DNA from: an uncultured virus (IMG/VR IMGVR_UViG_3300044612_002367)
Lineage: Duplodnaviria; Heunggongvirae; Uroviricota; Caudoviricetes
DNA length: 64,000 nt
IMG/VR virus record: IMGVR_UViG_3300044612_002367
Strand: one strand, 5' to 3'
In this document: one piece after another, positions 13,907 to 54,186 of the stretch
Layout of the letters: every line of letters begins with the position of its first letter
Numbering within the stretch: the first letter of the stretch is position 1
The notes under the pieces: generated by a model
What the model was told of the DNA's origin: nothing
Seen by the model: only the letters and a program-made list of their open reading frames with translations
Databases searched by the model: none
Program-made: the position numbers and the translations under genes

Positions 13907-14098
13907 TTATTCCTCTAAAATATCAGGACAATAATCTTTAATCTCATTTTCCAAAGGCTCATTATCCATTAAGTCTTTGCTATCCACCAATCTTTCATAA
14001 GCAAAAGAATACAAGGTATCAAAATCCATATCATCTAAAAGCCTATAAGCATAGATCCGTATAATATCATCACGATTCTTGTCAGTAATACTTATCAT
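13907..14098 (-). CDS. Small acidic hypothetical protein (paralogue 2)
   Basis: TDKNRD.II..YA..L.D.MD.D.LY.FAYE.LV.SKDL.DN.PLENEI..YCPDIL shared with 13455-13646. Confidence 0.8.
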   Translation of the reverse strand: MISITDKNRDDIIRIYAYRLLDDMDFDTLYSFAYERLVDSKDLMDNEPLENEIKDYCPDILEE

Positions 14099-14746: not shown

Positions 14747-14790
14747 CTGTCATTTTGGCAGATTTCGCGGGCCGTCTGCCATTTTGGCAG
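14747..14790. repeat. Motif A copy 1 (paired 15-bp palindromic box, 14-bp spacer)
   Basis: ctgtcattttggcag-atttcgcgggccgt-ctgccattttggcag. Confidence 0.95.
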
Positions 14791-14862
14791 TCCATAGAAA
14801 AAAGGAAGGCCGCAGCCGGTTTCCCAGCCGCGGCCCTCCGAGCCATTCCCACCACGAAAGGA

Positions 14863-15807
14863 TCAGATAGCGTTTGCAAATTCCAGGGCCGTTTCAAGAG
14901 CCTTGGCATTATCATTCGCATTTTGTCCGAACCAGAGAGAGTCGAGACGATTATCGGTCGTGCGACCCTTTCCGTAATTCAGATACTCATTAAACCCATT
15001 ATAGGCAGCCCACCAAGTACCGCGAACATTAGTAGCAGCCTGTTTCGGGCCTTCGATACGAGTCAGAATATCATCCATAATATTACGGGTACGAGTCTTA
15101 ATATCCTCGTCAGCACCCTTAATATTCAGGACAATCTTCACATACTTCTCAATATCCTTCTGGTTAAAAGTCTTACTAGCAAGGAATCGGTACTGATCCG
15201 CAGTAGCCTCAAAACCTACATTAATATTATCCATAATATCCCGAACCTGTTCCAGATTCTTCTGGCTGGAGCGAGTATGACGGATGCGAATAAGTTGACT
15301 ATTAGTATGCTTGTGAGCATAAGACAACGTATTCACACAAACCACTCTAATCGGAGTATATCCAACACGAATAGCAGTCGAACCATCATGACTATTACTC
15401 AGCAGGATAAACTTGCAAACCTCATCACCCTTGACAATTTCACTATTGTCGCGGTTAAGTTGAGCAAGCACCCAAACCTTTTGACCACTGTGGAGTGAAC
15501 CAGCAGTATGCAGATTGCACTCACCAGCGTCGAGGAACGGCTGGAACCAATCAAAAGCATCGCGGTTCTGGAGGGGCGTATAACGCGGCCCGACCACTCC
15601 CAGGATGCTACCATCAGTCTTACGGTATGTCGCACGATGCGAAACCGGAACACCATCAACGGTCTGCAAATCCTTCAGACCAACTTCCCAGTCAAGACCA
15701 GCGGCATCAATAGCCTCGCCAATCGACGGAGCCTCATCCAACTGATTGCCCAGGCCATGCCAAGGCGTCTCACCAACAAACATCATCTTCTCAACAGCAG
15801 CAGGCAT
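14863..15807 (-). CDS. DUF932/DUF945-family phage/plasmid protein (TIGR03299-like)
   Basis: PWHGLG, AGLDWEV, LGVVGPRYTPLQN, TAGSL..G.KVW, LLSNSHDGS, TPIRVVCVNT and GTWWAAYN motifs. Confidence 0.9.
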   Translation of the reverse strand: MPAAVEKMMFVGETPWHGLGNQLDEAPSIGEAIDAAGLDWEVGLKDLQTVDGVPVSHRATYRKTDGSILGVVGPRYTPLQNRDAFDWFQPFLDAGECNLHTAGSLHSGQKVWVLAQLNRDNSEIVKGDEVCKFILLSNSHDGSTAIRVGYTPIRVVCVNTLSYAHKHTNSQLIRIRHTRSSQKNLEQVRDIMDNINVGFEATADQYRFLASKTFNQKDIEKYVKIVLNIKGADEDIKTRTRNIMDDILTRIEGPKQAATNVRGTWWAAYNGFNEYLNYGKGRTTDNRLDSLWFGQNANDNAKALETALEFANAI

Positions 15808-15902
15808 CTTCTAACCCTTTCGTGTTATCGTTTCTTCGTTCTACTCCACTCATTCTACAATACAGTATCGGTATGTCAAGCGACTGAATTGAGAAAATTT
15901 TT

Positions 15903-15946
15903 CTGCCATTTTGGCAGGCGAGCCGGGGAAGCTGCCGTTTTGGCAG
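15903..15946. repeat. Motif A copy 2
   Basis: ctgccattttggcag-gcgagccggggaag-ctgccgttttggcag; abuts the stop codon at 15947. Confidence 0.95.
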
Positions 15947-16441
15947 CTAAATATTCAGCAGGGGTATCCCCATATCACGCTGGCATATTTTTGACCCACT
16001 AATATCATCACTATATGCACATTCTTTAGGAAGATAACAATATAATCCTATACATTTACTCCTGGGGTGTTCATCTTTGATAGTGCGTTGAATATGCCGA
16101 ATAGTATCGCCACTACATATAAGGTCGTCAAGGATAATATACCTAAAAGGTGCTATTCCCTCTATGGCAAAGTTTGAATAACGTTTTTCTTGTTCCTTTC
16201 TTACTAGAACAATATTTTTATTCAATAGTTCCGCTACTTGTGGAACAACCATAAGGCCGCTACTTCCACAACAAGCAATACTATCAAATTCATCAGAAAT
16301 TTTTCTCAGATCGCATACTGCTTTGATAATAATCTTTGTACGAATCTTATGATTCAATACGTGGCAAGTATGACTAGCGCCTTGAATAATGCCGTTGTCT
16401 GTTTTTCTGATATCTTCAATAGGATTATTCATTATATTCAT
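15947..16441 (-). CDS. Type I phosphoribosyltransferase-domain protein
   Basis: PRPP-binding loop IILDDLICSGDT, preceded by SGL...VA..L...IVLVRK. Confidence 0.8.
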   Translation of the reverse strand: MNIMNNPIEDIRKTDNGIIQGASHTCHVLNHKIRTKIIIKAVCDLRKISDEFDSIACCGSSGLMVVPQVAELLNKNIVLVRKEQEKRYSNFAIEGIAPFRYIILDDLICSGDTIRHIQRTIKDEHPRSKCIGLYCYLPKECAYSDDISGSKICQRDMGIPLLNI

Positions 16442-16446
16442 AGCAA

Positions 16447-16534
16447 AACGGATGGTACGATTCGAACGTACAGAGAAAAGAAGAAAGGATTGTTTTCCTT
16501 ATAATAGATACTTGTCCCACCAAGTTGCATCCGT
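16447..16534 (-). ncRNA. tRNA-like element / pseudo-tRNA
   Basis: Acceptor ACGGATG/CATCCGT, D-like arm ACTTG..CAAGT, perfect T arm GTACG-TTCGAAT-CGTAC; no normal anticodon arm. Confidence 0.6.
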
Positions 16535-16545
16535 CGGAGAAAAGA

Positions 16546-16686
16546 TCAGTCGTCAACCAGTTCTTGAGTTATATTATGATAATAGTTATCCCAATCACTC
16601 TCTACATCTTCCATACTATATTCGTCATCGTCATAAAGATCGTCGGTATCTTCTAGAATACTTTCATAATCATATTCATAAGTCAT
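16546..16686 (-). CDS. 46-aa very acidic peptide (not in ORF track)
   Basis: MTYEYDYESILEDTDDLYDDEYSMEDVESDWDNYYHNITQELVDD; TAAGGAG RBS and TTGACA-N16-TATAAT promoter upstream. Confidence 0.7.
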   Translation of the reverse strand: MTYEYDYESILEDTDDLYDDDEYSMEDVESDWDNYYHNITQELVDD

Positions 16687-16734
16687 AACTTTTCTCCTTA
16701 TTCCCATTATACACCAAACCGGTCAACTGTCAAG

Positions 16735-16806
16735 TAGGCCCGCAGGGACATGCACCCCGTTCAATAGATTAAAAGTCTATTGCATCACTACTAATGCTTC
16801 AGGCCC
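16735..16806 (-). tRNA. tRNA-Lys(UUU), atypical T-loop
   Basis: Cloverleaf; anticodon arm ATAGA-CTTTTAA-TCTAT; T-loop reads TGCATGT; no encoded CCA. Confidence 0.8.
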
Positions 16807-17027
16807 ATGAACGATTAGTTTATTTCCTCATAACTATAACTATCAACCGGGAAAGTTAGTTGCTGCTCAAGAGTAAAGAAAACATCAGTCCAATCAAATC
16901 CTTCATTCATTTCAACAGTAATATCATTCAGATGTTTCTCACCACTCTCCATCACAATATCATAAATACGCAACTTCTTCATTTCTTCTCTCTTTTGGTA
17001 TTATATCCTATCGAACGCCACTGTCAA

Positions 17028-17100
17028 TAGCCCTACGGAGGATCGAACTCCGATCTCCGGGATGAAAGCCCGGTATACTAAACCATTATACTATAGGGCC
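17028..17100 (-). tRNA. tRNA-Glu(UUC)
   Basis: CCGGG-CTTTCAT-CCCGG; T arm CGGAG-TTCGATC-CTCCG. Confidence 0.95.
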
Positions 17101-17234
17101 ACTCACCATAACTCAAACGTCAGCCTCCGTAACCGTATGATACATTATCGAGTTTCCGTTGTCAAGACTTGAGTTGTTTTTTATTCGAAATGGTGTATAA
17201 TAACTTAGCAAATCAATTTCAAGGAGTTTCGATT

Positions 17235-17735
17235 ATGAACAAGTGTCACAACTGTAACAAACAAACACAAAATCCTAAGTTTTGTTGTAGATCATGCTCA
17301 GCATCTTTTAATAATCATAAATATCCTAAAAGATTTCCTTCTCCTAGAGATGTTAAATGTTTATTTTGTAAAAATGAATGTAAAACTAATAAAAATAAAT
17401 ACTGTTCAAAACAATGTTCAATTAATTATAGGCAAAATCTAAAAGATATCATCATACAAAAAGACGGTTTTGGTTGCGGCCATTATCACAATAACACTAT
17501 TAGAAAATATCTAATAAGAACTCATGGCAATAACTGCATGATTTGTGGTTTAGACGCCACCAATTGGAATAATAAACCAATTACTCTTATAGTGGATCAT
17601 ATAGATGGCAAATCAAATAATAACAAATTAAATAATTTACGGATAGTTTGTCCAAACTGTGATTCTCAATTACCAACTTATAAAGCAAAGAATAAAGGTA
17701 ATAGTAGCAGATCGTACTTTATTGTTCAAAAATAG
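17235..17735 (+). CDS. HNH homing endonuclease with N-terminal Cys-rich repeats
   Basis: FCCRSC and YCSKQC repeats, then CMICG...LIVDHIDG..NNKLNNLRIVCPNC; AAGGAG RBS at 17221; the only plus-strand gene in the tRNA cluster. Confidence 0.9.
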   Translation: MNKCHNCNKQTQNPKFCCRSCSASFNNHKYPKRFPSPRDVKCLFCKNECKTNKNKYCSKQCSINYRQNLKDIIIQKDGFGCGHYHNNTIRKYLIRTHGNNCMICGLDATNWNNKPITLIVDHIDGKSNNNKLNNLRIVCPNCDSQLPTYKAKNKGNSSRSYFIVQK

Positions 17736-17831
17736 GGCCAGAGAGAATCGAACTCCCACTTGTAGGTAATCAGCCTACACCTTCCGGCCGGGGTTATAAG
17801 CCCCGTGTGCTAACCATTACACCATGGCCCC
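17733..17831 (-). tRNA. tRNA-Ile(UAU) with very long variable region
   Basis: Acceptor GGGGCCA/TGGCCCT, anticodon arm CGGGG-CTTATAA-CCCCG, 31-nt variable region, T arm GGGAG-TTCGATT-CTCTC. Confidence 0.8.
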
Positions 17832-17839
17832 ATGAACCG

Positions 17840-17881
17840 ATTATACACTGTGTTATCGGCTTGTCAAGTCCCAAAACTTTA
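17840..17881 (-). promoter_or_regulatory. Overlapping sigma70-like and sigma28-like promoter (type example)
   Basis: Minus strand TAAAGTTTTGGGACTTGACAAGCCGATAACACAGTGTATAAT = TTGACA-N16-TATAAT plus TAAAG-N16-GCCGATAA. Confidence 0.8.
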
Positions 17882-17888
17882 GATTTTC

Positions 17889-17933
17889 GCTGACTACAAC
17901 CACCCTGACCGAATCCGTAGGATTAGGCAAGAC
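17889..17933. repeat. Motif B copy 3
   Basis: gctgactacaaccaccctgaccgaatccgtaggattaggcaagac; abuts the tRNA-Ser 3' end. Confidence 0.9.
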
Positions 17934-18019
17934 GGAATCTGAGGGATTCGAACCCCCGGAGGATTTTAACCCTCGGCTCTTTAGTAAAAAGCTGCCTTCA
18001 ACCACTCGGCCAAGATTCC
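17933..18019 (-). tRNA. tRNA-Ser(ACU)
   Basis: Acceptor GGAATCT/AGATTCC, G discriminator, long variable arm, anticodon loop TTACTAA. Confidence 0.85.
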
Positions 18020-18023
18020 TAAA

Positions 18024-18095
18024 CACACGGGGTAGGATTCGAACCTACATCTGACAAATTAACAGTTTGGGGCATTACCATTATGCTACCCGTGT
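18024..18095 (-). tRNA. tRNA-Asn(GUU)
   Basis: Loop CTGTTAA; T arm GTAGG-TTCGAAT-CCTAC. Confidence 0.9.
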
Positions 18096-18113
18096 TCATT
18101 ATGTAACCAACTA

Positions 18114-18184
18114 TTCCGGGACTACGATTTGAACGTAGAATAAAGGATCCAAAGTCCTCTGTGATACCGTTTCACCATCCCGGA
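18114..18184 (-). tRNA. tRNA-Gln(UUG)
   Basis: GAGGA-CTTTGGA-TCCTT; acceptor TCCGGGA/TCCCGGA. Confidence 0.9.
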
Positions 18185-18185
18185 G

Positions 18186-18257
18186 AGCCGACGAAAGGAT
18201 TTGAACCTTCAACCTATTGATTACAAATCAATTGCACTACCGTTGTGCTACATCGGC
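18186..18257 (-). tRNA. tRNA-Thr(UGU)
   Basis: ATTGA-TTTGTAA-TCAAT; acceptor GCCGATG/CGTCGGC. Confidence 0.95.
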
Positions 18258-18730
18258 AAGACTACATATCATACTCATCTCGCCAACTTTTGTCAATATC
18301 GTGCCGTGTTCGTTGACGCTTGGGCCTGTTGTCCATAGACGTATCCCGGCGATCTTCTCTGTGACCCGTAGAGATTTCCCAAGGCTGTTTGGTTTTGACC
18401 TTGAACTTGCCGTACTTGCGGCGTGGCCTCATATCGTCGTTGTTGTGGAGCGTAATCATACCATTGACCATTTTCGTGTAAATAAAAAACCTTATCTAAA
18501 TTAGGATCGTACGCCATTAAACAGTATTGTACCGGATAAACTGTTTTTGTCAATTGTTTTTGTTTTGGTATTTGTGGTAGGTGTATCTCACCCTTTTGAT
18601 AATCTTTTACACTATTCCACACAAATCCTAACAAAGCAATCGCTACTCCTACCCACTGTATCATACGCTCTCCGTTTGTCAACCGTCGTTTCATAATCTT
18701 TTATCGGTTGTCGATGGCTAAAACTTTAGT

Positions 18731-18774
18731 CTGCCTTTTTGGCAGATGGGCCGCGGAGGCTGCCGTTTTGGCAG
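18731..18774. repeat. Motif A copy 3
   Basis: ctgcctttttggcag-atgggccgcggagg-ctgccgttttggcag; abuts the stop at 18775. Confidence 0.95.
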
Positions 18775-19000
18775 CTACTCCAGTTTCCACCCCGCCAACT
18801 TAGCCACTTTACTTAAACTAATTACCTTAGTTTCTTTATCAGCAGTAATATAATCTCTATACCCACGCTCATCAACATAAAAGTACTCATCTAATACATC
18901 AAACTGGTTAGTTTCCCACAATGCAATTTGAGCAGCCTCAACCGGCTTAGAATTAGGAGCAGAATAAATCAACTCTAAACTACCACACTTAATATAATAT

Positions 19001-19597
19001 TTAGACATTGTTATACCTCGCTCTACACTGTTCACAATAACAGTCGCTATCTTCGTCACCATCCCAACAAACTTCCGGGAAATTATCTCCATCATCACTT
19101 ACACTTTCAGCACCGAAGTCGATGGGGACAATAATTCTTTTATCTCCACGTTTGACATACCCAAGATTATTAGGGTGAGCATCATTATAACTCAATCCAT
19201 AATTATCACTAATATCTCCTAGCATATCTTGTATAGAAGAATAGTTTTCACAAAGATCGCAATGAGCACAATCTCCATCACAATCTTCACTATCACAAAA
19301 ATATGTACTAGCAATTTCGGTCAAATAACCCCAATCGCTCAAAACCATATGAGTAACAGCCTTGATACCGCCGCGACCGTCGCTAGTTGCAAAATAATTA
19401 GGAACTCTAATTTTACAAACCGGACTATAAACTTCAGGAGCAAGATAAGGGGCTAGTTCACTTTGCACAGCATGAGCAAAAGTAGCCAGACTCTTATTAG
19501 GGAATCCCTTGAATCCGTACTTTTTGCCTTTTACTTTATAGAAAGTATTTTTGCTACCACTACCCGAAAACTTACCAACGTAACTATACTTATTCAT
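19001..19597 (-). CDS. Protein-kinase-like (PKL fold) protein
   Basis: Gly-rich GSGSK, GFK, catalytic-loop-like DAHPNNLG, IDFG; Cys/Asp-rich insert. Confidence 0.65.
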   Translation of the reverse strand: MNKYSYVGKFSGSGSKNTFYKVKGKKYGFKGFPNKSLATFAHAVQSELAPYLAPEVYSPVCKIRVPNYFATSDGRGGIKAVTHMVLSDWGYLTEIASTYFCDSEDCDGDCAHCDLCENYSSIQDMLGDISDNYGLSYNDAHPNNLGYVKRGDKRIIVPIDFGAESVSDDGDNFPEVCWDGDEDSDCYCEQCRARYNNV

Positions 19598-19608
19598 TGT
19601 AAAAATTC

Positions 19609-20319
19609 TTAGTGAGCAGGAAAAAGCACGTTAGCCAGACCACGCGGACACAAATCACAATGTACGCTATTCTTGGTTTTTGTGCAAGTCACAACGCCAC
19701 GACCACGACGAATTTCCGGACAAGTAATAAACTTTTCACCCTCTAGCACAACCAGTTTCGGCAATGTTTTACGCCATGCGTCAGCCTTAGCCTTACTACG
19801 CGGACGCTTGGGGGCAATCTTAGTATCACTATCACACCATGCGAAATGCTTGAAACCAGCGGCTTTGGCTTGTTTCATATCTTCACCATCGTGGATACTA
19901 GCATACATATTTATATACTTGCCAAGTTCAAGAGACAGTCGAGTATCATAAATATGGGTATAGGCCCACATGGTCGGCAGACTACCACCACTAGCAAGAA
20001 TACTTTCACAAGCCCACAATACATTATCAACGTACTCATTATCAAGTTTGCCATCCTTGAAAAAGTCGCCACGCTCGTGCCAGCGAACATCTTTATTTTT
20101 CTTGACAGCATCTACAAGCATAGAACGAATACGATTTTTTTCCGTGATAAGATTTTGCATACCAGCGGGACGAACACCGGGATAGATATTTTCCAAGTCC
20201 TCAGCATAGCAACCATTACCGAGAAAATCACAATCGGGCGGGCAAGTATCGCCAACCGGGCGACTAACAACTATGCAGTTTTCCTTGCCCAACTTATCAT
20301 TACCATTTGCAGTTTTCAT
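19609..20319 (-). CDS. GP88-like (radical-SAM-related) phage protein
   Basis: GNDKLG, TCP..C....GCYA, VRWHERGDF, WAYT, C-terminal CP..TC..C..C..FPAH. Confidence 0.6.
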   Translation of the reverse strand: MKTANGNDKLGKENCIVVSRPVGDTCPPDCDFLGNGCYAEDLENIYPGVRPAGMQNLITEKNRIRSMLVDAVKKNKDVRWHERGDFFKDGKLDNEYVDNVLWACESILASGGSLPTMWAYTHIYDTRLSLELGKYINMYASIHDGEDMKQAKAAGFKHFAWCDSDTKIAPKRPRSKAKADAWRKTLPKLVVLEGEKFITCPEIRRGRGVVTCTKTKNSVHCDLCPRGLANVLFPAH

Positions 20320-20393
20320 CTTTTTTCTCCGTGTCTCAGTATTCTACACTAGAGTATCGGCTTGTCAAATGAAAAAACTTGAAAGAATTTCGT

Positions 20394-20437
20394 ATGCCAT
20401 TTTGGCAGATGGGCCGCGGAGCCTGCCATTTTGGCAG
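20394..20437. repeat. Motif A copy 4
   Basis: atgccattttggcag-atgggccgcggagc-ctgccattttggcag; 3 nt from the tRNA-Asp 3' end. Confidence 0.95.
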
Positions 20438-20440
20438 AGG

Positions 20441-20514
20441 CGAGAGCGACGGGACTTGAACCCGCAACCTTTAGCGTGACAGGCTAACGATCTAACCAAT
20501 TGATCTACGCTCCC
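20441..20514 (-). tRNA. tRNA-Asp(GUC)
   Basis: TTAGC-CTGTCAC-GCTAA; canonical arms. Confidence 0.95.
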
Positions 20515-20517
20515 AAA

Positions 20518-20589
20518 TAGCCCCAGGAGGAATCGAACCTCCAATAACTGCTTAGAAGGCAGTTGTTATATCCATTTAACTATAGGGCC
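20518..20589 (-). tRNA. tRNA-Arg(UCU)
   Basis: ACTGC-CTTCTAA-GCAGT; T arm GGAGG-TTCGATT-CCTCC. Confidence 0.95.
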
Positions 20590-21271
20590 GTGTTTCTATT
20601 ATAACATAACCCACTCAATGCCGCAAGCCCCTATGGCGTCCCATAGAGGCTATACGGTTTGATGGTGGAGCCACTTTACCATCGTTATATTACTAGTAGC
20701 AGACCCCTTCCCAGCAACCACTCTGGTTATTAGTTGGTTAGACTCTACTAGGTGGGTATTGCCCACATATTACGCGGGAAGTTATCCCGCCGCACTATGC
20801 CTAAAATCTATTTATACTGGCATAGTCCAGTTTGTCAATTCAGGCAACAGCCTCCGCTTCCGCCTTGCTGTTGTGAGCGTCACCAGCCTGCTCGGCAGTA
20901 ACGCCAGTCACCCTAGCACGCCAAACCTTGTAACCCTGCTCGCTAAAACTCTTGACCTCGCCAGCCTTGACATTCGCATGAACATCACCGGGCAGACTAT
21001 CGCTCAGGCAAGAACGAATCGACTCCACAACACCATCACGATCAAGATCATCAGCAACAACATCAACAACAAAAGAAAACTTCTTCATAGTAAACCCTTC
21101 CAAGTTAGTGTTATCAACCAAGTAAACAGATTATACAAACCACTCATCACTTGTCAAGAGCCAATCCGAACTTTTCTTTGCGTTGGGATCGTTTGGCGTC
21201 TTGTCGTGTGATGCTATCATCATACCATAGAGTATCGGCTAGTCAACAGCATCTCGTGAATATTTTTTGCT

Positions 21272-21315
21272 CTGCCATTTTGGCAGCCGGGCCGCGGCGC
21301 CTGCCGTTTTGGCAG
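21272..21315. repeat. Motif A copy 5
   Basis: ctgccattttggcag-ccgggccgcggcgc-ctgccgttttggcag; abuts the stop at 21316. Confidence 0.95.
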
Positions 21316-21705
21316 TTATGAGAGATAACCCTCACAACCCAAACCAGCAAGATCACGCAGCAACTTTTCAGCCGCCTCGGGAGTCTTGAGAGTAATACTC
21401 TGCTTCGCACCAGCAGAGGCAGGAACGAACTTGTCGTACTTCCAACCGCCCACCAGAGCATCCGTCCAATCCTTGCTTTCCTTCAAGCCCCATCCGGTGT
21501 GGAGTCGAATAGCCTTTATGCAAGAGATACGATTGTCCAGATTCATTCCGTTCGTGATGGTAATGGTACGATTCTGGTTCACGCCCAACTCCATCTCAAA
21601 GGCGTTCACGATCTTGTGATACAGTTCGACATCGTTGTTGTATGCCCAACTAGTAGCCAGATTCATAGCCTCACGAACACTCAGTTGCAGATTAATCATA
21701 TTCAA
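21316..21705 (-). CDS. Protein with ribosomal protein bL12 (L7/L12) C-terminal-like domain
   Basis: RISCIKAIRLHTGWGLKESKDWTD..EAAEKLLRDLAGLG resembles bL12 CTD KIxVIKxVRxxTGLGLKEAKxLVE. Confidence 0.7.
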   Translation of the reverse strand: MNMINLQLSVREAMNLATSWAYNNDVELYHKIVNAFEMELGVNQNRTITITNGMNLDNRISCIKAIRLHTGWGLKESKDWTDALVGGWKYDKFVPASAGAKQSITLKTPEAAEKLLRDLAGLGCEGYLS

Positions 21706-22177
21706 ACCCTTTCTTCCAAAATATAAACTTGTTTGCCGTTAGTCAGTAAAGTAGCGTATTCGCTATCGTCCCAAACGAATTCGTTGCTATCGCTTTCTCG
21801 TCGCCAGAACGGATCGCGGATTGGATTATAGTATAACTTTTCAAGATTGTCAACAGGCAAAAGTGGATGAAAATCTTTTCGTAACATCAATTCTTCACAT
21901 CTTACCCATCCACTCACATCATGCACACCAGCCTCAAATACCTTTTTAGCCTTATTAGGCTTATTTATTAATCTACAACCCCTCATTTCCAACTGATATT
22001 CAGCAGGATTATAATAATAAACATCAACTTTCTTACTACCACGCATGACTTTTAGTTGCCAATGCATGTAGTTAGCCCCACTGCTCAAATGGAATCGTAC
22101 TTCGCCATGTAGTGGTTTTGTTTTCATGCTACTAGCATACCTTATCGACCAATCGTTGTCAAGATCATTAATTTCTC

Positions 22178-22222
22178 GCTGACTATCAGCACGACCGGCA
22201 AATCCGTAGGATTAGGAAAGAC
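22178..22222. repeat. Motif B copy 4
   Basis: gctgactatcagcacgaccggcaaatccgtaggattaggaaagac. Confidence 0.9.
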
Positions 22223-22366
22223 AAGAGGATCGGGTTATGCCATACTCGGCCTTGCATTTAACCGCGGCTTCTTTGATATCATTTTGCCAACGGCCCGCAT
22301 CCACTTGTCCCTTAAGTATACTATTAGTATCGGAATGGTCAAGAGAAAGATTTAAAAAATTTTGGT

Positions 22367-22410
22367 ATGCCATTTTGGCAGATGGTGCGGCCCGGCCGCC
22401 ATTTTGGCAG
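22367..22410. repeat. Motif A copy 6
   Basis: atgccattttggcag-atggtgcggcccgg-ccgccattttggcag. Confidence 0.95.
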
Positions 22411-23698
22411 TTAGTTACCTACATACCACCAATGGCATTCAGCACAAAAATACCATAAGATGCCATAGTTATGATCATACTTGTATGCTAGTATATCACA
22501 TTTTCCACATGGACAAATATCACTAAGAGTTTTCATAAACTAACTCCACATACTTATCCACAAGTTCGGAAACTGCAATCTCATGGGTAGAAATAAGTTC
22601 TTTAACTTGGCTTACATTTTGCTTATTCACAGCCGCCATTCTATTCCTGAAAAAACTAAGAATATAGATCATGGCTTTTTCTCTATCGTTAGTCATACAA
22701 CCCCTTAGTATATTCTTCTGGAATAATCGGACACCAACTCTTTGCTCGTTCCTCGTCGTAAGGAAGCCAGAACGGAGCATCACAAGCATCAACAACTCCA
22801 AATTTTTCGTTAGTGAAAATATGGGGGCAAAGGTCTATCTTTTTTTCTTCATTAACTTTCAAGCCATTTTCATCGTAATGATATGGAAAGAATCCCCTGT
22901 CCTCTTGATAAGAATAGTGTCCAATCCCGATACCAATATGCGGCCCAAAGTAATAAATCTTCTGTCCAACCTCTGGTGGATTCTTATGAGAGTTAAACCA
23001 TTCCATTACTTGTATACCTCTATCTGCCACCTACCATATTTGAGTTCAGCAGTAACACTCATACCCAACTTAACCAGTTCGGATACGATTTCGGCCAATC
23101 GCTCAATCTCATTAATATTAAGATAGATCATTTTCCCCTCACAACTACCAAACACTTTGTACCAGTATCCCCATCGGTATACTTCACACATTCATGAGGC
23201 CCGTAATACCAAGCATCATTCTTAGAGAAGTTGAACACAATCTCTTCGGTCTTGAGTTCGGTATCATTATACCCACCCTCATACCCAAGAGTCAATACCC
23301 TCATATCGCCGGGATAGTTCTTCAACTGCTCAATAAGTTCACTTACAGTCATTACCAATCCTCCGGCATAGGAATCTCTTCAAAACCAATATAGCATACC
23401 ACTAACGAATTGTCAAACTGATCCCATTCCAACATACCATCATCATATTCACCGTGCCACCAATCACCCCATCCACCCTCTTCCTTATTCCAAGTAAGAT
23501 CAATAGGAGATGAATATCCCTTCACACAACAAAGATATTTCTGATTAACAACAGGATTATCATAATGCCAGTTCATTATTTCCACCTAAAACTAAAGTGT
23601 GTAGACTGCCCGACATAACCAACAAGTTTTCACTTGTTCTGTAATCATTCTACTATGTAGTATCGGCCTGTCAACTAAAAAAATCCACAAAAATTTTT

Positions 23699-23742
23699 CT
23701 GTCATTTTGGCAGTTTTCGCGGCCCATCTGCCACTTTGGCAG
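23699..23742. repeat. Motif A copy 7
   Basis: ctgtcattttggcag-ttttcgcggcccat-ctgccactttggcag. Confidence 0.95.
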
Positions 23743-23918
23743 TTATTCAGGGTCTATTGGTTCATCAGTGTAGTATTGAGAGTCGGTCAAAACGCTAGGC
23801 TTGAACTTGCTAAGTTTTGTCTTTTTGCAATCAGCACAAACTCTAGCCAGGGGAATACCTCTAGCATCACTCTCCCACCAACTATTCTTACCAGAACCAC
23901 AAGAACAATACTTGATAA

Positions 23919-24428
23919 TCATGCTTCTACCTCATCACCAAAAAATTCTTCCATACCAAATTCATTCCACAATGCAACAGGAATCATATCCTTAGTAGTA
24001 TACTCACAATAATTATCAGCACCATTATCCCAAATTCCACAAAAGGCCATTCCAGGCCCCCAATAACTAGCCTTTACATCATATCCCAACTCTACCAGTT
24101 TATTATACAAACCGATTGGAGGAGCCCAGGCACTATCAAAACTACAATTAGCCTGATTACCAACCCTAGTAGCCTTCAAGCCGTATCTTTCTTCTTTGTC
24201 CGTACCCATATCAGCACCAATATCCCACTTAGTTCCCCAGTTATTTACACACCAATTATACCAATAGTTTGGATCATTTTGATCTAGGATAATATCGCCG
24301 CTCTCATTTTTAGGAACGGGCAAATAATGCTCACAAACATTACCAGCGTTATAAGCATCAACAAATTCCTTCAACTTAGAAGGATCATTATGCTCAACAG
24401 TCAATTTGTTCATGCACCAGTTTGGCAT
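23919..24428 (-). CDS. DUF1281/Api92-like ferredoxin-like fold protein
   Basis: MPNWC.N, WYNW...NWGTKWD and FDSAWAPP signatures. Confidence 0.8.
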   Translation of the reverse strand: MPNWCMNKLTVEHNDPSKLKEFVDAYNAGNVCEHYLPVPKNESGDIILDQNDPNYWYNWCVNNWGTKWDIGADMGTDKEERYGLKATRVGNQANCSFDSAWAPPIGLYNKLVELGYDVKASYWGPGMAFCGIWDNGADNYCEYTTKDMIPVALWNEFGMEEFFGDEVEA

Positions 24429-24716
24429 ATTTTTACCCTTTAGTTAGAACTACCACACACAGCACTATGCTTTTGCTCATTCAACTTTTTCATAATCAAA
24501 GTTGTAGTAGTCTCTTTCAACTCCAACACCGTATCAAACTTGATCTTATGCACAGCCTTATTGGTACTAGGAGTTTCAGCCACAGCACAAACCAGAGTAG
24601 CATACTCCATCATGATACTAGCAATCTCGTCACGAATTGTATGATTACGAGTCATTGTTTTTCTCCTCTTTGGTCTAGTCTACACTATCTTTTATCGGTT
24701 GTCAAGAGCACAAAAT

Positions 24717-25166
24717 TTAGGCTGCACCCGCAAGAGTCTTTCCATTAGAATAATACTTATTCCGGCGAAGTTTCTTCATCATGGTCTTTTTGGTGAAAGT
24801 CTTAGTCTTGATACCGTTAGGGGTGATATAGACCAAAACAATCTTATCAAAATTCTTAGTCTTGATATTCTGGAACTGATAAAAATGCCGACCACTAGGC
24901 AACTGACGAGCCAGAGAAGACTTGACTTCAACACGTTGACCATCAACCAGCATATCAAAAGGATTGGTTCCCCCGATATACTTAACCCTCCGACCTTGCA
25001 TAATCAACTTATCCCTAATCATCTTCTCCACAATAGCACCACGATGCTGATTGTTCAGTCGAGACAGACTATAGGACAAACGGCTCTTTCGCACAGAAAA
25101 CACACTCTTGCTGCTCAGTCCCTTGATTTCCCCCAAAACCCGATTCATGTGCTTCAGCGTGAACAT
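24717..25166 (-). CDS. Putative PD-(D/E)xK endonuclease
   Basis: G...E helix followed by PFDMLVDGQRVEVKSS; very basic. Confidence 0.6.
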   Translation of the reverse strand: MFTLKHMNRVLGEIKGLSSKSVFSVRKSRLSYSLSRLNNQHRGAIVEKMIRDKLIMQGRRVKYIGGTNPFDMLVDGQRVEVKSSLARQLPSGRHFYQFQNIKTKNFDKIVLVYITPNGIKTKTFTKKTMMKKLRRNKYYSNGKTLAGAA

Positions 25167-25269
25167 TATCGTTTTCCATTATCTTTGAGGTTAGTTGATC
25201 ATCCCTTATGTAAGCCTCATTATATGGATTATCGGCATCTTGTCAAGAAAAATTTGTCGAAAAAAATAA

Positions 25270-25313
25270 CTGCCATTTTGGCAGTTTTCGCGGCCCGGCT
25301 GCCAATTTGGCAG
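25270..25313. repeat. Motif A copy 8
   Basis: ctgccattttggcag-ttttcgcggcccgg-ctgccaatttggcag. Confidence 0.95.
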
Positions 25314-26143
25314 GCCAAAACCCCCTCAAAAGAGGAGGCTGGCCAAGCCGGTCTTCATCAATACATCCCCCATAGGAAATCGACGAACATTAGTAGCACG
25401 TTCAGCATAAAACTGTCGAATCTTACCATCAAACGTCTGGCAAGTTACCAGATGATGAGTACGCTTAAAGATTGAATCGTGACGACGATAACTGCTAGTA
25501 CGATCCAACTTTCTAATAGTCTCATCGCTCAACGTATAAACAGGCTCAATAACCTTAGCAAGAATCCTTTGACGCTCACCATGAAAAGGCTGCTCATAGT
25601 CAAAATTATATACTTCACCAACCTTAGCAGTGCTAAGACTACCATGAATGCCGTTGTAAACATTCAAAGCGAGAATAAACAGCAAAGCAGCAATACCAGC
25701 AACAGCAGCAATACCAATATAAACCATATCGTTCATTATCAAACCCTTTCGTTATTGAAAACCTTTTCCACCAGTATACTCTATTATCGACACTTGTCAA
25801 GCCGCCGCTTTAGAAAAATTTTCGCTCCAAAATTCGGCAACTTCATGCAGATTCACAGCACTATCATTCCATGCCACACCATCCGGTGTTTCGTATGCGA
25901 TAGCAGAGTTGATATCCATCTCTCGCAACCTAGCCTTAAAATCATTATAGTTTTGACATACGGCCGCGAATTCGTTCAGACCTTCATCATTACTAATCCA
26001 TAAACAAACATTCCAAGTCTGATAATTAGCGTAGCCGTTATAGGTTCCGTCAGGACTCATTTTTCTACCCTTTCAATTAGAGGTATGTCCTAAGTATATC
26101 ATCATAATCGGCAAATGCAAGAGGGAAAATTTAGAAAAAATGT

Positions 26144-26187
26144 CTGTCATTTTGGCAGTTTTCGCGGCCCATCTGTCATTTTGGCAG
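26144..26187. repeat. Motif A copy 9
   Basis: ctgtcattttggcag-ttttcgcggcccat-ctgtcattttggcag; supplies the TGA stop of ORF 26176-26433. Confidence 0.95.
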
Positions 26188-26737
26188 ATAGGTTATTTCT
26201 TGTCCATTTTCAATCATAGCGGAGTATGCTGCTATCCGCTTATCCTTTTCACGTTTTTCGATTTGATGATCGGTTTCGCCGATCTCTAACGAATCACACT
26301 TGCGTTCAAGATCGGCCAATGAAACACTATCGGTACGATTATCACGAAAGTTTTCGGGCAGCCAATCATTAGGAATCAGAATAACATCCTTGATAATCCG
26401 ATCAAACTCTGCGAGCAATTCATAACCGTTCATTTTACTTCCTAATAAAAAGTGCTTCGATCTCTAAAAACCAATGATAGCCTATAAATGCAAAAAACAC
26501 AAGAGCAATCACGACTTTTTTATCCTTTCGGTCAATCCGCTTGGATGATGAATCACGATCCATCCCTCGTCCGCTTTTTTAATCATTTCCGTTGGCGTTG
26601 GGCCTTTACGATTCTTCCAGTATTCTTTCGCTTGAATCCTAGCCAAATAAGCATCATAATCGTTTTTCATTGTTCTCTCCTGATGAATAGATTATACATT
26701 TAGAATCGGCATTGTCAACAAAAGAAAACGGTTTTTC

Positions 26738-26782
26738 GCTGACTACAGCCCATATAGCCAAATCCGTAGGATTAGATGGGAC
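26738..26782. repeat. Motif B copy 5
   Basis: gctgactacagcccatatagccaaatccgtaggattagatgggac. Confidence 0.9.
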
Positions 26783-27080
26783 AGTCAGGAGACTCCCATC
26801 CAAATTGCATTTTCCAGACAGTAATCATAAAACATATCGTTCAATACTTCGTAGCAATTGTTTTCCGTAATCCTACGACGATCAAAAGTGGACTCACACT
26901 CGGCATACAGTTTGCCATCAACGGTCAAAATCAGACTCACATTATGGCTTTCATCAGCCCAAATTTGCTTCAGCGTATCACGAATCTTAGTGGTGTCCAT
27001 TTTCTTCTCCTTTGCTTTTGTTATCGGTATTTTACCAACAAACTCTTGAATGTCAAATAAAAAAAATGAAAATATTTAGT

Positions 27081-27124
27081 ATGCCATTTTGGCAGTTTGG
27101 CCGCGGCGCCCGCCATTTTGGCAG
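27081..27124. repeat. Motif A copy 10
   Basis: atgccattttggcag-tttggccgcggcgc-ccgccattttggcag. Confidence 0.95.
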
Positions 27125-27341
27125 GCTAATTATTAGTTAATCAAATAGGTTACAATACAACCAGTGATAAAGCACATAAAAATAAAAATCATCTTCTCTT
27201 TATTATTCATATTATTCCTTTACTGGAAAAACAAGATCATGAACAAGATAAGAACCAAAAATGCCAACAATAAATCCCACACTCACACTCACCCAATTTA
27301 TATCGAACATCCGTGTTCCCTTTCTTTAGTTTAGTTTTTTC

Positions 27342-27386
27342 GCTGACTACATCCACCACATCCAAACCCGTAGGGTTAGGTGAGAC
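27342..27386. repeat. Motif B copy 6
   Basis: gctgactacatccaccacatccaaacccgtagggttaggtgagac; palindrome changed symmetrically to AACCC/GGGTT. Confidence 0.9.
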
Positions 27387-27609
27387 AGTCACCACCCGTC
27401 GCTAATCGCCTGTCTCTTTTGAGAACCGCGAGTACGCAGTCTCTTGGTTCGGTTGTCGTGCTGCCCGCTACCAGACCGATGCTCGCTATGGCCGTGTCCA
27501 ATTTCCCACAACGGACGAACATTCAACTTCACGACGATTTTCTTATTCTGCTTGCTCATAACTTTATCCTACCATAGTTTATCGGCTTGTCAATACGAAA
27601 ACTTTAGAT

Positions 27610-27625
27610 AGCAAATATCGTGCCA
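27610..27625 (-). promoter_or_regulatory. sigma54 -24/-12 element
   Basis: Minus strand TGGCACGATATTTGCT matches TGGCACG-N4-TTGCW exactly. Confidence 0.7.
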
Positions 27626-27663
27626 ATTTGGCAGAAATCGCGGCCCGCCTGCCATTTTGGCAG
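27620..27663. repeat. Motif A copy 11
   Basis: gtgccaatttggcag-aaatcgcggcccgc-ctgccattttggcag. Confidence 0.95.
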
Positions 27664-28969
27664 TATTATTACTCACTCAGTAATATTACAATATGTTAGA
27701 TTATTAACCAAAATACTCTTGATAAGCCCATCGTCCTGCTTAATTACAAGCATTTCACCCTTAGCGGGATTAGTAGATGGCCAACTCCAAACATCAATAA
27801 TAACACCAGTAAAAATACGACCATCTTTACGCTGACCAGTGAAACGTTTGTTGTAATGTTCACGCATACTCATTATTACTTCTCCGCTCCTACCACCATA
27901 CCATCCATGAAAGGATAACTCTTGTCGTCAATCTTTACAAACCACTCAAAATTCTTCTGGTAAACATATCGCGGACTATACTGGTTGATTCTATCCTTAG
28001 TGGTCAGAGTCTGCCATCCACCACTATTCAGAGTGTAGGTATTGTCGGGATGAATCTTCACAACGTAGGTACTGTGCAGCATAATCCCCACGCTACCATC
28101 GCTCAGAATTTCAGCGTAGGTATTGTTTCCAACCTTGCGACGATTAGCATTACGCTTGCCACGAACCATAGATACCGCTTCGGAATGAATCATTTTCAAC
28201 GCTCCGTATAGTTAGTGAGTTCGTTCTGATTGAAGATACCGTGCTGGCCGTTTTCGTCAACTACAAAAAACACAATCAGCGGCTTTCCGTTCTCGATGAT
28301 AACGTCGAAAGTATTCACGTGAACCTTTGCACCACTCAGCGTCGTAGCGTGAATCACAACGTCGGTAGTTGAAGCGTTCATTTGTTTTTCCTCTTTCCTT
28401 TATATCGACATTCTACAGGGGAAACTTTAGTTGTCAAGAGCAATTTTTGCAGCGTCCAAAATATGCTGAACGGTCAAATCTTTGTAGAGAACCATTGGCA
28501 ATTCCAAAATCTTTCCATAAGACTTAGGATCGTCAGTATCCCTAAGAACCGTAATATCTTTACGATACGCACCCGTATAATCCACATATCGACGCAAAAC
28601 AAATTCAACGTCTTTTGGATCATACACGCCCTGCTGAAAACCGTCATAATAAACTTTAAATTTCATATTTCTTTCTTCTACTTTCTAAGTTCAGCACGTT
28701 CCCTAGCATACCGATACATGGCACGTTCGTCAACCATGAATCTTTCTACACCCTTCAAATCCTTGAAGTTCCAATGGTAGGTGAGAACGTCAGACCTGAC
28801 CATCCAATGGGCTTCGATGTCCGAAGTCTTTTTCAGCGTATATCCCAGCTTGTTCAGTTCTTTTGCAATCGTCTTGCTATTCATCTTCTTCTCTTTTTCT
28901 TTCTCTTATATCGGTATTTTACTCATCAAACTTGAGAAGTCAAATAAAAAAAATGCCTAAAATCTTTGC

Positions 28970-29013
28970 CTGCCATTTTGGCAGTCGCCGCGGCCCGCCT
29001 GCCATTTTGGCAG
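28970..29013. repeat. Motif A copy 12
   Basis: ctgccattttggcag-tcgccgcggcccgc-ctgccattttggcag. Confidence 0.95.
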
Positions 29014-29440
29014 TTACTTTTTTGCGGCCACCTTTTCCTTTATCATTTCATTATAAAGTTTACTTAGATTTTCAACGTGAGCAATCGCTCTATTAGTTTC
29101 CCGATTCATTCGTTCCAAGGCTTTTTGATAATTACTAATCTTTTTCTTTTTCATAACTCACTCAAAATCCACAAAAATAACCTGATGATAACCGCGAGGC
29201 TTAATAGTAAGGCCAGTATCATAATCGAACGTATCAGCCTTTACACCCGTCATACCGGCCAAAGCCTTAGCCTGTCGAGTGATATTGTGTTGAGCAGCCG
29301 AGCGGCTAATAGTAAACTCGTGCCGATTCACCCAACCATAATTAGGCTCACCACCAAAAGTATCAGTATGAGTTACAATAACCTTCATCATCTTATTATT
29401 CCTGTTAGTAAAGTAAGAATCGATCCAATTTTTAATATCT

Positions 29441-29773
29441 TCAGTCTTCATAATAACCGTATCCATCATCACTGTGAAAATCCTCACGATCATCACCATA
29501 ATAACCATAATCCTCATCGGTTCCCCATCCCGCAGAAGTCATCGCGGAATCGTGGTCGCCATCCATACTATCATCATACGAATCATCCCAATCGTTCTCC
29601 TCGTTTTCCTCATCATAACCTTCATCTTCATTCATTTGATCACGGATTTCATCCAGTTCATTTTCTGGCAAACCCCAGAAATCATTGTGGTCATCATAGT
29701 TCTCATCTTCGATCATCATATCATCATCCTCCATAGAGTTATCGGGATCATACAATGGATCGGGGTGACTCAT
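29441..29773 (-). CDS. Extremely acidic 110-aa protein
   Basis: MSHPDPLYDPDNSMEDDD...DHDSAMTSAGWGTDEDYGYY; AAAAGGA RBS before the ATG at 29773. Confidence 0.75.
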   Translation of the reverse strand: MSHPDPLYDPDNSMEDDDMMIEDENYDDHNDFWGLPENELDEIRDQMNEDEGYDEENEENDWDDSYDDSMDGDHDSAMTSAGWGTDEDYGYYGDDREDFHSDDGYGYYED

Positions 29774-30073
29774 GACTTGTTCCTTTTCAACTAACGTACC
29801 ATACTTCGCCGCTGTCGTCAACCATTTCCTGCGGCTCGAATTCTTCCACAATGCCCACAACATCTGCCCAATCCCAAAAATTCACTTCCACGTTAGGATC
29901 GTCAATCGGCTCCACCATCGGCTCGATCATGCCCTCGTCGGCCATAGCGTTAAGAACAGCGTTCACTTGATCGAAATCGTGAAACATGATCTTTTCTCCG
30001 TTGTGATGCTTTGATTCTACATTAGGTATCGGCAATGTCAACTAAAAAAATTAGCGGCAAAAATTATTTTTTG

Positions 30074-30089
30074 TGGCACAACATTTGCA
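30074..30089 (+). promoter_or_regulatory. sigma54 -24/-12 element
   Basis: TGGCACAACATTTGCA (GG-N10-GC). Confidence 0.7.
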
Positions 30090-30093
30090 CTGC

Positions 30094-30137
30094 CTGCCAT
30101 TTTGGCAGCCCGGCCGCCCCGCCTGCCATTTTGGCAG
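30094..30137. repeat. Motif A copy 13
   Basis: ctgccattttggcag-cccggccgccccgc-ctgccattttggcag. Confidence 0.95.
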
Positions 30138-31073
30138 TTATCCTTTTAGGGCCATGTAACTAATAGTAAAACAGAATAGTAACAATAATAGTATACTACT
30201 ATTAGTCATCACCCCTCCAAGAGAAGGGGCTAACTTCCTCACCGCTAGCCATGATAGCAGCATACTGCTGTGCTAAAGCCTCTTTACGTTCAGCATTACC
30301 AGGCTTACCAACGGGGATAATCATAGTATCATCGCCACCATTGTAGCGAGGATCGACCTTTTCGACCTTACGCTTGCCAATCTTTCGCAAAGCCTTGCGA
30401 TTGAACTTTAATACCTTTTCACTACGAATCGGCCCGTATGTACCATCGGCCAGACTAGGCTGGTGGGGAATTGCAATTCCAAGAAAGCACGACAGGATAA
30501 CACGGTCAGCATCAATCAGAATTTGTGGCTTACTCATTTATTTTTCTCCAAAGGATGATGGATTGTAGAAACCTATAGACTACCTTGCAACCCCCCGAGT
30601 TAGGTAGCAGACACAAATCCTGCATCTTCCAACTTCAAGCATGAAACACAATCTTGAAGGTATAGACTACGATACTTCATCGTGCCAGTAGGATAATGCT
30701 TCATGGCTACAGTGAACATATGTCCCTTTGGCAAATCACGAACCAGAACAACTCGACCATCGTACTTTTTACCGTTCTTATGATCGACAACTACCATATC
30801 ATTCACGCTGACCATTGTAGTATTCTCTTTCTTTCTAGGGTTAGTTGCTATCGGGATCGGTAGGATCGGAAACATATTCCAGAATAGGGGTACAATGCTC
30901 AAGGCAGCATGAGCAAATATCATAACCCCTAATTTCATCACCACAGCAATCGGACGTAATCACTTCAATCATTCTCATTTCAATTCTCTCTTTCCTTTTC
31001 TCTTATATCGACATTATACATAGGCATACTTGAATGTCAACTAAAAAAAATCGTAGATAAAAAATATTTTCTT

Positions 31074-31116
31074 TGGCATGATATTTGCTATGCTAGAGTT
31101 TGGCATGAGATTTGCA
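31074..31116 (+). promoter_or_regulatory. Two tandem sigma54 -24/-12 elements
   Basis: TGGCATGATATTTGCT (31074-31089) and TGGCATGAGATTTGCA (31101-31116). Confidence 0.7.
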
Positions 31117-31120
31117 GCGC

Positions 31121-31164
31121 CTGCCATTTTGGCAGTTGGCGCCCGCGGCCTGCCATTTTGGCAG
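31121..31164. repeat. Motif A copy 14
   Basis: ctgccattttggcag-ttggcgcccgcggc-ctgccattttggcag. Confidence 0.95.
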
Positions 31165-31754: not shown

Positions 31755-31770
31755 TGGCATACAGTTTGCT
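31755..31770 (+). promoter_or_regulatory. sigma54 -24/-12 element
   Basis: TGGCATACAGTTTGCT (GG-N10-GC). Confidence 0.65.
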
Positions 31771-54169: not shown

Positions 54170-54186
54170 GTATAGGATAATAAAAT

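Follow-up and report, generated by a model that had tools for sequence, protein, structure and literature searches.

What does a rigidly spaced pair of palindromes do fourteen times over at the boundaries between small gene cassettes of a phage? This question is raised by a stretch of 64,000 nucleotides (called the window below, in its whole length) from an uncultured virus of the Caudoviricetes (IMG/VR record IMGVR_UViG_3300044612_002367), for which an earlier note, made from the DNA letters alone, had listed 14 pairs of a palindromic box. We find that the box of this phage is identical to a box at bacterial chaperone promoters, and for this reason the phage probably either taps a stress regulator of its host or titrates it. 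On balance, we favour the view that the elements are paired DNA binding sites for a putative host regulator of a sigma-54 chaperone regulon. The link between box and chaperone genes is documented below; binding of the box by a protein, and the presence of such a regulator in the host of this phage, are what we infer from comparing sequences.

A paired box repeated fourteen times

Searching the window with CTGCCATTTTGGCAG gave 28 boxes with 0-2 mismatches, all on the + strand and of a single polarity, which group as 14 pairs with a spacer of 14 bp and a period of 29 bp. These paired-box elements are located at 14747..14790 (element 1, at the left end of the array), 15903..15946 (element 2), 18731..18774 (element 3), 20394..20437 (element 4), 21272..21315 (element 5), 22367..22410 (element 6), 23699..23742 (element 7), 25270..25313 (element 8), 26144..26187 (element 9), 27081..27124 (element 10), 27620..27663 (element 11), 28970..29013 (element 12), 30094..30137 (element 13) and 31121..31164 (element 14), all on the + strand and at the 14 starts that had been listed before. 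With up to three mismatches allowed, the CTGCCATTTTGGCAG search returned 46 matches compared with 1.35 expected from shuffled sequence; 15 of the 46 are array boxes seen again on the - strand, and the three-mismatch matches outside the array (35117, 36573 and 40667) are at chance level. No further pair was found elsewhere in the window, in agreement with the earlier note. The earlier description of the box itself also holds: the right half TTGGCAG is unchanged in all 28 boxes and the centre is TTT in 25 of them (CTT or ATT in the remaining three), with other variation confined to positions 1, 2, 4 and 6 of the left half. The 29-bp period of all 14 pairs places two 15-bp palindromic sites a few helical turns apart, as in the enhancers of sigma-54 activators. 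The array, at 14-32 kb, has a G+C content of 40-46% (36% in one 2-kb bin), compared with 31-33% in its flanks, and includes tRNA genes. Genes to the left of about 32 kb lie on the minus strand, and are followed by terminase, portal and other structural genes on the + strand.

The same box at bacterial chaperone genes

In two bacterial phyla, chaperone promoters of the sigma-54 type have this box beside them. A scan of the genomes of 185,579 species for the box-N14-box pattern gave six matches that represent five distinct stretches, namely one phage-like contig of a metagenome-assembled genome (MAG), one weak match and three sequences from Gemmatimonadota that lie upstream of dnaK. The three Gemmatimonadota genomes contain 14, 8 and 9 boxes, compared with 0, 4 and 1 for a reversed-pattern control, and these boxes are clustered in groups of 2-5 with both polarities and varied spacings. 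In G002 all five clusters are located upstream of dnaK, clpB, hsp20 (two genes) or lon, as assigned by Pfam, and the same placement at chaperone genes is found in G003 and G004, by Pfam or by matching start sequences. Judged by eye, the last box is followed by a GGCACG-N4-TTGC-type motif at distances from 8 nt (hsp20) to about 50 nt (dnaK and lon), the clpB case being unclear, and taken together the boxes precede the -24/-12 motif by 8 to about 130 nt. Clear enrichment of the box was observed in just 4 of 121 sampled Gemmatimonadota genomes, and none of the approximately ten activators per Gemmatimonadota genome adjoins a box cluster. In two Gemmatimonadota genomes a HigB/HigA-like toxin-antitoxin pair is located directly upstream of the dnaK boxes (L122, 2644-2967; L123, ~2760-2960), and in L123 the antitoxin frame diverges and continues into the box region. 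One of the four enriched genomes, G090, has 27 boxes with extended flanks (GT-box-AC), mostly paired 30-32 bp apart, some of which precede a repeated gene family starting MDHPIRL beside a PIN-domain gene.

A metagenome scan for the box followed after 4-34 nt by TGGCACG (box-N4-34-TGGCACG) returned 79 stretches. In about 55 of these the gap is fixed at 11-12 nt and leads to TGGCACG-N4-TTGA or TTGC, on contigs of 44-57% G+C. Chaperones are encoded by 58 of the 68 open reading frames (ORFs) that start within 250 nt downstream (GroES 16, GrpE 31 and HtpG 11), the other ten being without a family, and one of the GroES sequences falls into a 90% cluster named Paludibacteraceae (Bacteroidales). About eight of the 79 stretches are more phages, in which paired boxes are located 7 nt upstream of a sigma-54 motif. 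A motif TAnnTTTG ends 8-9 nt before the box in 9 of 49 distinct Bacteroidales-like modules, which suggests a housekeeping promoter with its transcript start at the box.

Palindromic or tandem operators upstream of dnaK, groE, clpB and lon are familiar from the CIRCE/HrcA, HAIR/HspR and CtsR systems, the sequences of which are not known to be related to the phage box and which use sigma70-type promoters. The genes found here are those of the sigma-54 chaperone regulon of Bacteroidota (groES-groEL, grpE-dnaJ, dnaK, htpG, clpB and lon, on -24/-12 promoters; PMC9723704, PMC12316311), and at groES, grpE and htpG we find the box separated from such a promoter by 11-12 nt, on its upstream side. A map of transcription start sites in Flavobacterium psychrophilum places sigma-54 -24/-12 promoters at groES-groEL, lon, dnaK, grpE-dnaJ, htpG and clpB, with three PF00158 proteins counted in this organism (PMC9723704), and a comparative study from 2025 describes a sigma-54-linked cluster of GroEL, IbpA, GroES, GrpE, DnaJ and DnaK that is enriched in Bacteroidota and Planctomycetota (PMC12316311). 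In their passages on this regulon both accounts give promoters, but not an upstream box or its binding protein, and those passages hold nothing on phages. Regulators of chaperone genes have been described elsewhere: HsfA of Myxococcus xanthus is NtrC-like and activates the heat-shock gene lonD (PMC9109919), and in Porphyromonas gingivalis RprY binds the promoters of groES, dnaK and clpB, none of which has a CIRCE element; the passages on RprY do not state what site it recognises (PMC3646045). The box is not named in the relevant passages of these four sources.

Constraint on the boxes in related phages

A scan of viral contigs gave 119 stretches. The 80 listed matches represent no fewer than 36 contigs, the longest of 224 kb, and these relatives carry arrays of the same paired-box element. 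Five relatives rated as 100% complete (138-224 kb) have 15-31 boxes each at up to one mismatch, compared with 0 for the reversed pattern, all of one polarity and within a single region of 9-20 kb. Of 447 adjacent box pairs in the window and its relatives, 352 have the 29-bp period, a count that includes both-strand double counts. Across 46 orthologous copies that could be aligned through both flanks, the two boxes diverge by 5.5% and 5.2%, compared with 23.9% for the spacer and 19-22% for the flanks. Constraint therefore acts on the boxes. Because the boxes are constrained and the spacer is free to change, the element appears to consist of two sequence-specific recognition sites at a fixed distance rather than a stem constrained by pairing. 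Among 207 distinct 44-mers the spacer has CG at its centre in about 84%, with an asymmetric core that reads CCGC or the complement of this, palindromic alternatives being depleted. Spacer self-complementarity in this set is lower than in shuffled sequences (z of -5 to -6 at the inner pairs), and the idea of a long hairpin in which the spacer pairs with itself was rejected for this reason.

We nevertheless considered whether the elements act as RNA, either as hairpins in the 5' leaders of + strand transcripts from sigma-54 promoters or as terminator or processing hairpins of the minus-strand cassette mRNAs, and regard this as unlikely. The 44-nt element can be folded as one long hairpin (-13 to -26 kcal/mol), a stop codon abuts it in 7 of 14 cases, and the left-half variants seen most often would keep the stem paired through G.U on the + strand but not on the other, by 75 changes to 13. 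It is the sequence of the stem that is conserved, however, rather than its pairing, with no compensatory double changes and 2 Watson-Crick-restoring cases among the variants. The lack of compensation in the left half had been put forward before as an argument for protein binding; this argument is weaker than originally stated because the common variants C4>T and A6>G are exactly G.U-compatible on the + strand. On the minus strand, which is the mRNA sense, left-half variants weaken the hairpin in several copies, down to -4.4 kcal/mol at 26144 (element 9). A single element of the 14 (element 8) scores as terminator-like on that strand and four have a run of at least five T within 15 nt, whereas a canonical hairpin and T-run terminator is present separately at 14804-14839, immediately to the right of element 1 and thus directly before it in the minus-strand direction. 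The region as a whole has no excess of terminator-like sites, with 17 compared with 12.3 +/- 4.7 in shuffled sequences. No family in Rfam 15 matches any of the elements at E <= 1, the hits elsewhere in the array being tRNAs and a Pistol ribozyme only. The left/right asymmetry of the box is also the same in Gemmatimonadota, where boxes occur in both orientations upstream of promoters. We conclude that the element is neither a terminator nor an RNA of known type, and that it is not the attC site of an integron.

Sigma-54-type promoters fused to the elements

The phages fuse sigma-54-type promoters to a part of their elements and, as judged from the window and five complete relatives, encode no sigma-54 machinery. 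In the window a strict -24/-12 motif adjoins 2 of the 14 elements, with three motifs in total: TGGCAC-N5-TTGCA at 30074..30089 (+) points into element 13 from 4 bp upstream, and a tandem pair at 31074..31089 (+) and 31101..31116 (+) precedes element 14, the proximal motif ending 4 bp before it. An additional lone motif at 31755..31770 (+), 590 bp past the last pair and followed by a degenerate box, faces the + strand module, and lone last promoters of this kind are likewise present in the relatives G007, G009 and G010. The variant first box of element 11 also yields a match to TGGCAC-N5-TTGCT on the minus strand (27610-27625). Among 168 unique elements of the relatives, 52 have a strict TGGCAY-N5-TTGCW motif 3-5 bp upstream, in the same polarity and aimed into the element, and second copies of the motif occur 29-47 bp further upstream, sometimes with a single box in between. 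Of the 28 strict motifs in the five complete relatives, 26 have the same polarity as the boxes, and all but one are located in, or at the end of, that side of the array which faces the + strand module. Beyond the last modules of G011, G007, G009 and G010 come + strand ORFs, and after these a conserved pair of proteins of ~212 and ~272 amino acids, a pair that also begins the + strand module of the window. Neither sigma-54 nor an HTH_8 (Fis-type helix-turn-helix) domain is encoded in any of the five complete relatives, in which the sole matches to Sigma54_activat are two weak ones of 12-13 bits, and no sigma-54, HTH_8 or Sigma54_activat domain was detected among the 112 ORFs of the window. To our knowledge very few phages use sigma-54, and we found no paper in the open-access literature that describes this module or such arrays in phages.

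The CCA-N3-TGG core of the box resembles the half-site arrangement of NtrC. The elements are further like NtrC-type enhancers in that two palindromic sites are placed about three helical turns apart, in the association of some of them with TGGCAY-N5-TTGCW promoters and in belonging to phages without an activator or sigma factor of their own. However, the sites of NtrC-family sigma-54 enhancers are described as lying 80-150 bp upstream of the promoter (PMC7910581), whereas in the phage an adjacent promoter is followed by the boxes after 3-5 bp, the next promoter to the right is 0.6-1 kb away, and the majority of copies lack an adjoining promoter. Relative to the start site, the box is located about 45 bp upstream in Bacteroidales and at +1 to +45 in the phage. 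The proposal of the earlier note, a protein-bound site of the sigma-54 activator type that serves a host protein as enhancer or decoy, thus gains from the box at sigma-54-type chaperone promoters in two phyla and from the promoters fused to a third of the relatives' elements, and loses from the position of most copies, downstream of or far from a sigma-54 promoter, and from the possibility that the binding protein is a repressor and not an enhancer-binding ATPase. Enhancers of the FlrC activator were reportedly found downstream of the start at Vibrio cholerae flaA and flgK, by Correa and Klose in 2005. These enhancers are similar in having activator sites downstream of a sigma-54 start site, and differ in the box, in the regulon and in serving single promoters rather than arrays.

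The sequence of the box also invites a reading in which sigma-54 RNA polymerase itself docks at the elements. Each box would then provide two back-to-back -24-like TGGCAG sequences, completed on one strand to GG-N10-GC through the asymmetric CCGC/GCGG spacer core, and the array would hold holoenzyme in closed complexes as a roadblock or sponge. TGGCAG is one base off the -24 consensus, and the CG spacer centre and CCGC-type core put YYGC 5 nt after one TGGCAG. However, CCGC is a poor match to the -12 sequence TTGC, and one that is largely a consequence of the conserved CG centre with its G/C flanks; the observation that 13 of 14 spacers give GG-N10-GC mostly follows from the same composition. 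A second, degenerate promoter would also be redundant where true consensus promoters adjoin the boxes, and in bacteria the boxes are at variable distance (8 to ~130 nt) from a separate and better -24/-12 motif. We therefore consider docking of the polymerase very unlikely.

Cassette boundaries, early promoters and mosaicism

In the direction of the early genes, which is that of the minus strand, each module consists of a stop codon, the paired boxes, 0-2 opposing sigma-54-type motifs, an AT-rich stretch, a near-consensus sigma70-type promoter and the next small ORF. Stop codons of minus-strand ORFs (at least 30 amino acids) abut the right edge of 7 of the 14 elements, for example that of the ORF at 15947-16441 (-) at element 2, and lie within 12 nt in three more; a further element (element 4) has a tRNA gene at 1 nt, the tRNA-Asp at 20439-20514 (-). 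Minus-strand promoters of the form TTGACA-N16-TAnAAT are located to the left of 12 of the 14 elements, at a gap of 23-26 bp in nine cases: 15852..15879 and 25219..25246 (23 bp, from elements 2 and 8), 22315..22342, 23647..23674 and 27029..27056 (24 bp, from elements 6, 7 and 10), 20341..20368 and 21219..21246 (25 bp, from elements 4 and 5) and 27566..27593 and 28916..28943 (26 bp, from elements 11 and 12). The three longer gaps are of 48 bp at element 3 (18655..18682), in which no strict sigma-54 motif was found, and of 52 bp at element 13 (30014..30041) and 80 bp at element 14 (31013..31040), into which one and two sigma-54 motifs of ~28 bp each, respectively, are inserted. The copies are mostly situated between the end of one minus-strand cassette and the promoter of the next, as had been reported previously. 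In the array region 20 promoters agree with the consensus at 11 or more of its 12 positions, and every one of them is on the minus strand. CCGATA(C) is conserved 2-3 nt past the -35 hexamer of most cassette promoters (e.g. 20341-20368, 23647-23674 and 30014-30041) and may be an extra regulator site or a promoter feature.

The elements mark mosaic junctions between phages. In blastn comparisons of the array with its relatives, 87 of 315 right ends and 29 of 319 left ends of high-scoring segment pairs lie within 5 bp of an element edge, compared with 0.8% expected, these counts being inflated by overlapping loci. Homology typically spans a cassette, its promoter and the element and ends at the right edge of the latter, so the element moves together with the promoter and gene on its left, and cassette content varies among the relatives. 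Of the suggestion that the elements are recombination sites, what survives is their role as homology breakpoints; as sites of a recombinase they find no counterpart, since no recombinase was found. That they are sites of a site-specific recombinase in the manner of an integron, or of a phage-encoded DNA-binding protein of unassigned family, is accordingly the least probable of the readings considered here. Their position at cassette boundaries with uniform polarity, and the differing cassette content of the relatives, are what one would expect of such sites. Against this, Phage_integrase (PF00589) is present in none of the five complete relatives and no recombinase is found among the ORFs of the window, so that the adjacent tyrosine recombinase of integron attC sites was seen in neither; each cassette has a promoter of its own, unlike the promoterless cassettes of integrons, and the box is also found at chaperone genes in bacterial chromosomes without any phage. 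A protein that recognises the box may also be a phage-encoded mimic of the host regulator.

Modules of comparable architecture, termed PeSL (promoter-early stem-loop), were reportedly described in T4-type phages by Arbiol and colleagues in 2010. This raises the possibility that our elements have no dedicated binding protein, and are the stem-loop part of PeSL-like promoter/terminator modules that is kept uniform by recombination and gene conversion and provides homology for cassette shuffling. As presented by Comeau et al. 2014 (PMC4122927), PeSL cassette modules of T4-type phages have their palindrome directly ahead of an AT-rich stretch, after which come a near-consensus sigma70 early promoter, a Shine-Dalgarno (SD) sequence and a start codon, among small variable ORFs. 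The 12 promoters described above, nine of them at 23-26 bp, share this arrangement, and in both cases the modules border small variable ORFs in a plastic region, with homology between phages breaking at the module; the segment ends at element edges speak for the same interpretation. In contrast to PeSL, the phage with the array is not T4-type, its “stem-loop” consists of two 15-bp boxes of conserved sequence in rigid arrangement, between which the spacer evolves freely, and the box is identical to that of bacterial chaperone promoters and often fused to opposing sigma-54 promoters. Homogenisation alone would leave unexplained why the boxes diverge by ~5% and the 14-bp spacer by 24%, why an identical box stands at bacterial sigma-54 chaperone promoters and why the fused sigma-54 promoters keep a constant distance of 3-5 bp. 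A module devoid of any binding protein hence seems improbable, though slightly less so than a function in RNA. A role in homology is compatible with binding sites for a host regulator, as an evolutionary consequence.

Megablast of the array against cultured phages returned tRNA matches only, and blastn of one module returned chance matches only (E = 8); no cultured phage with a known host in that collection therefore bears the module. The terminase and portal gave merely weak, generic PHROG matches, and the best tblastn matches of the terminase are to Bacillus siphophages, at about 25% identity.

A host regulator as the probable reader of the array

Binding by a host regulator would account for these observations if the following steps are supposed. 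A putative host regulator would recognise CTGCCA-W3-TGGCAG by the sigma-54 chaperone promoters of Bacteroidota and Gemmatimonadota, and the phage would have incorporated this chaperone box into the module at its cassette boundaries. One dimer of the regulator per box would control the rightward sigma-54 promoters near the structural-gene end of the array, such that rightward transcription (middle or late, and antisense to the early genes) would depend on a proteostasis signal of the host. The 28 sites per genome, multiplied by replication, could compete with the chaperone promoters of the host for the regulator. Pairs without a promoter may be distant enhancers, regulators of the adjoining early promoters or decoys, and as a by-product the conserved elements would supply homology for the shuffling of cassettes, in the manner of PeSL in T4-type phages. 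The regulator could be either an enhancer-binding ATPase or a repressor, and the elements enhancers, operators or decoys.

Several observations weigh against this interpretation. All of the collection scans were conditioned on the box motif itself. At least 11 of the 14 elements in the window, and about two thirds of those in the relatives, have no adjoining strict sigma-54 motif, and the next rightward sigma-54 promoter is 0.6-1 kb beyond the boxes, unlike the textbook 80-150 bp. The excess of G.U-compatible left-half changes on the + strand is what a + strand hairpin would lead one to expect. With regard to the host, the TTGACA/TATAAT promoters and the SD-like motifs at 23 of 54 starts (compared with a background of 10%) are atypical for Bacteroidota, and the G+C content of the phage (31-33%) is far from the 65-72% at the Gemmatimonadota loci. 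The -12 tetramer is TTGA, not TTGC, in 36 of the 49 distinct Bacteroidales-like modules. Finally, G090 has paired boxes between convergent genes and by unrelated genes, and the box is thus not exclusive to chaperone promoters in that genome, where its distribution looks broader, or like that of repetitive extragenic palindromes.

A bolder version of the host-regulator reading, which we think doubtful, is that 14 or more paired boxes form a DNA sponge for a proteostasis regulator of the host and thereby reprogramme its chaperones. The same regulator would then gate the sigma-54 promoters of the phage and so, by sensing copy number or stress, time the switch from early cassettes to structural genes, with neither a sigma factor nor an activator of phage origin. 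In this form the idea would apply to a widespread lineage of uncultured lake phages, with thousands of sites upon replication.

The chaperone link provides the upstream box of a bacterial regulon with a strong comparative signature. It also narrows the possible hosts for these uncultured phages, which form a large group, to bacteria with chaperone genes under sigma-54, namely the Bacteroidota-Gemmatimonadota group and, from the literature alone, Planctomycetota (PMC12316311). Gemmatimonadota as such are unlikely to be the host, given the above difference in G+C content and the few genomes that are clearly enriched in the box. A MAG, G006, was likewise dismissed as a host clue: its boxes are on the phage-like contig, apart from one with a single mismatch on contig C148, and a search of this MAG for sigma-54 found none. 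Through this link the proposed mechanism becomes testable, namely that the phage times its programme or takes over the host via a stress regulator, with the elements serving as enhancers or titrating the regulator as decoys.

Other features of the array and its surroundings

The Pistol self-cleaving ribozyme match is located within the array at 20768-20831 (-), just downstream of a tRNA-Arg/tRNA-Asp pair, and scores 56.5 bits (gathering threshold 34.5, E 3.6e-8). Rfam also finds an additional tRNA (44 bits) that is absent from the ARAGORN list, and its match to tRNA-Ile extends over 99 nt compared with 72 nt by ARAGORN, a discrepancy that may reflect an insertion or intron; each of these two observations concerns one of the sites 16735-16806 (-) and 17733-17831 (-). 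Just to the left of the array are two neighbouring paralogous small ORFs of the DUF7326 family (13455-13646 and 13907-14098, both on the minus strand). Directly after the structural genes a + strand ORF of at least 3,272 codons (54184-64000) leaves the end of the window open, and no closed ORF is listed there because the frame runs past that end. An Mtd_N domain protein and an FGE-sulfatase (C-type-lectin-like) domain protein are encoded at 44121-44600 (+) and 47142-48848 (+), a pair of the kind found in targets of diversity-generating retroelements.

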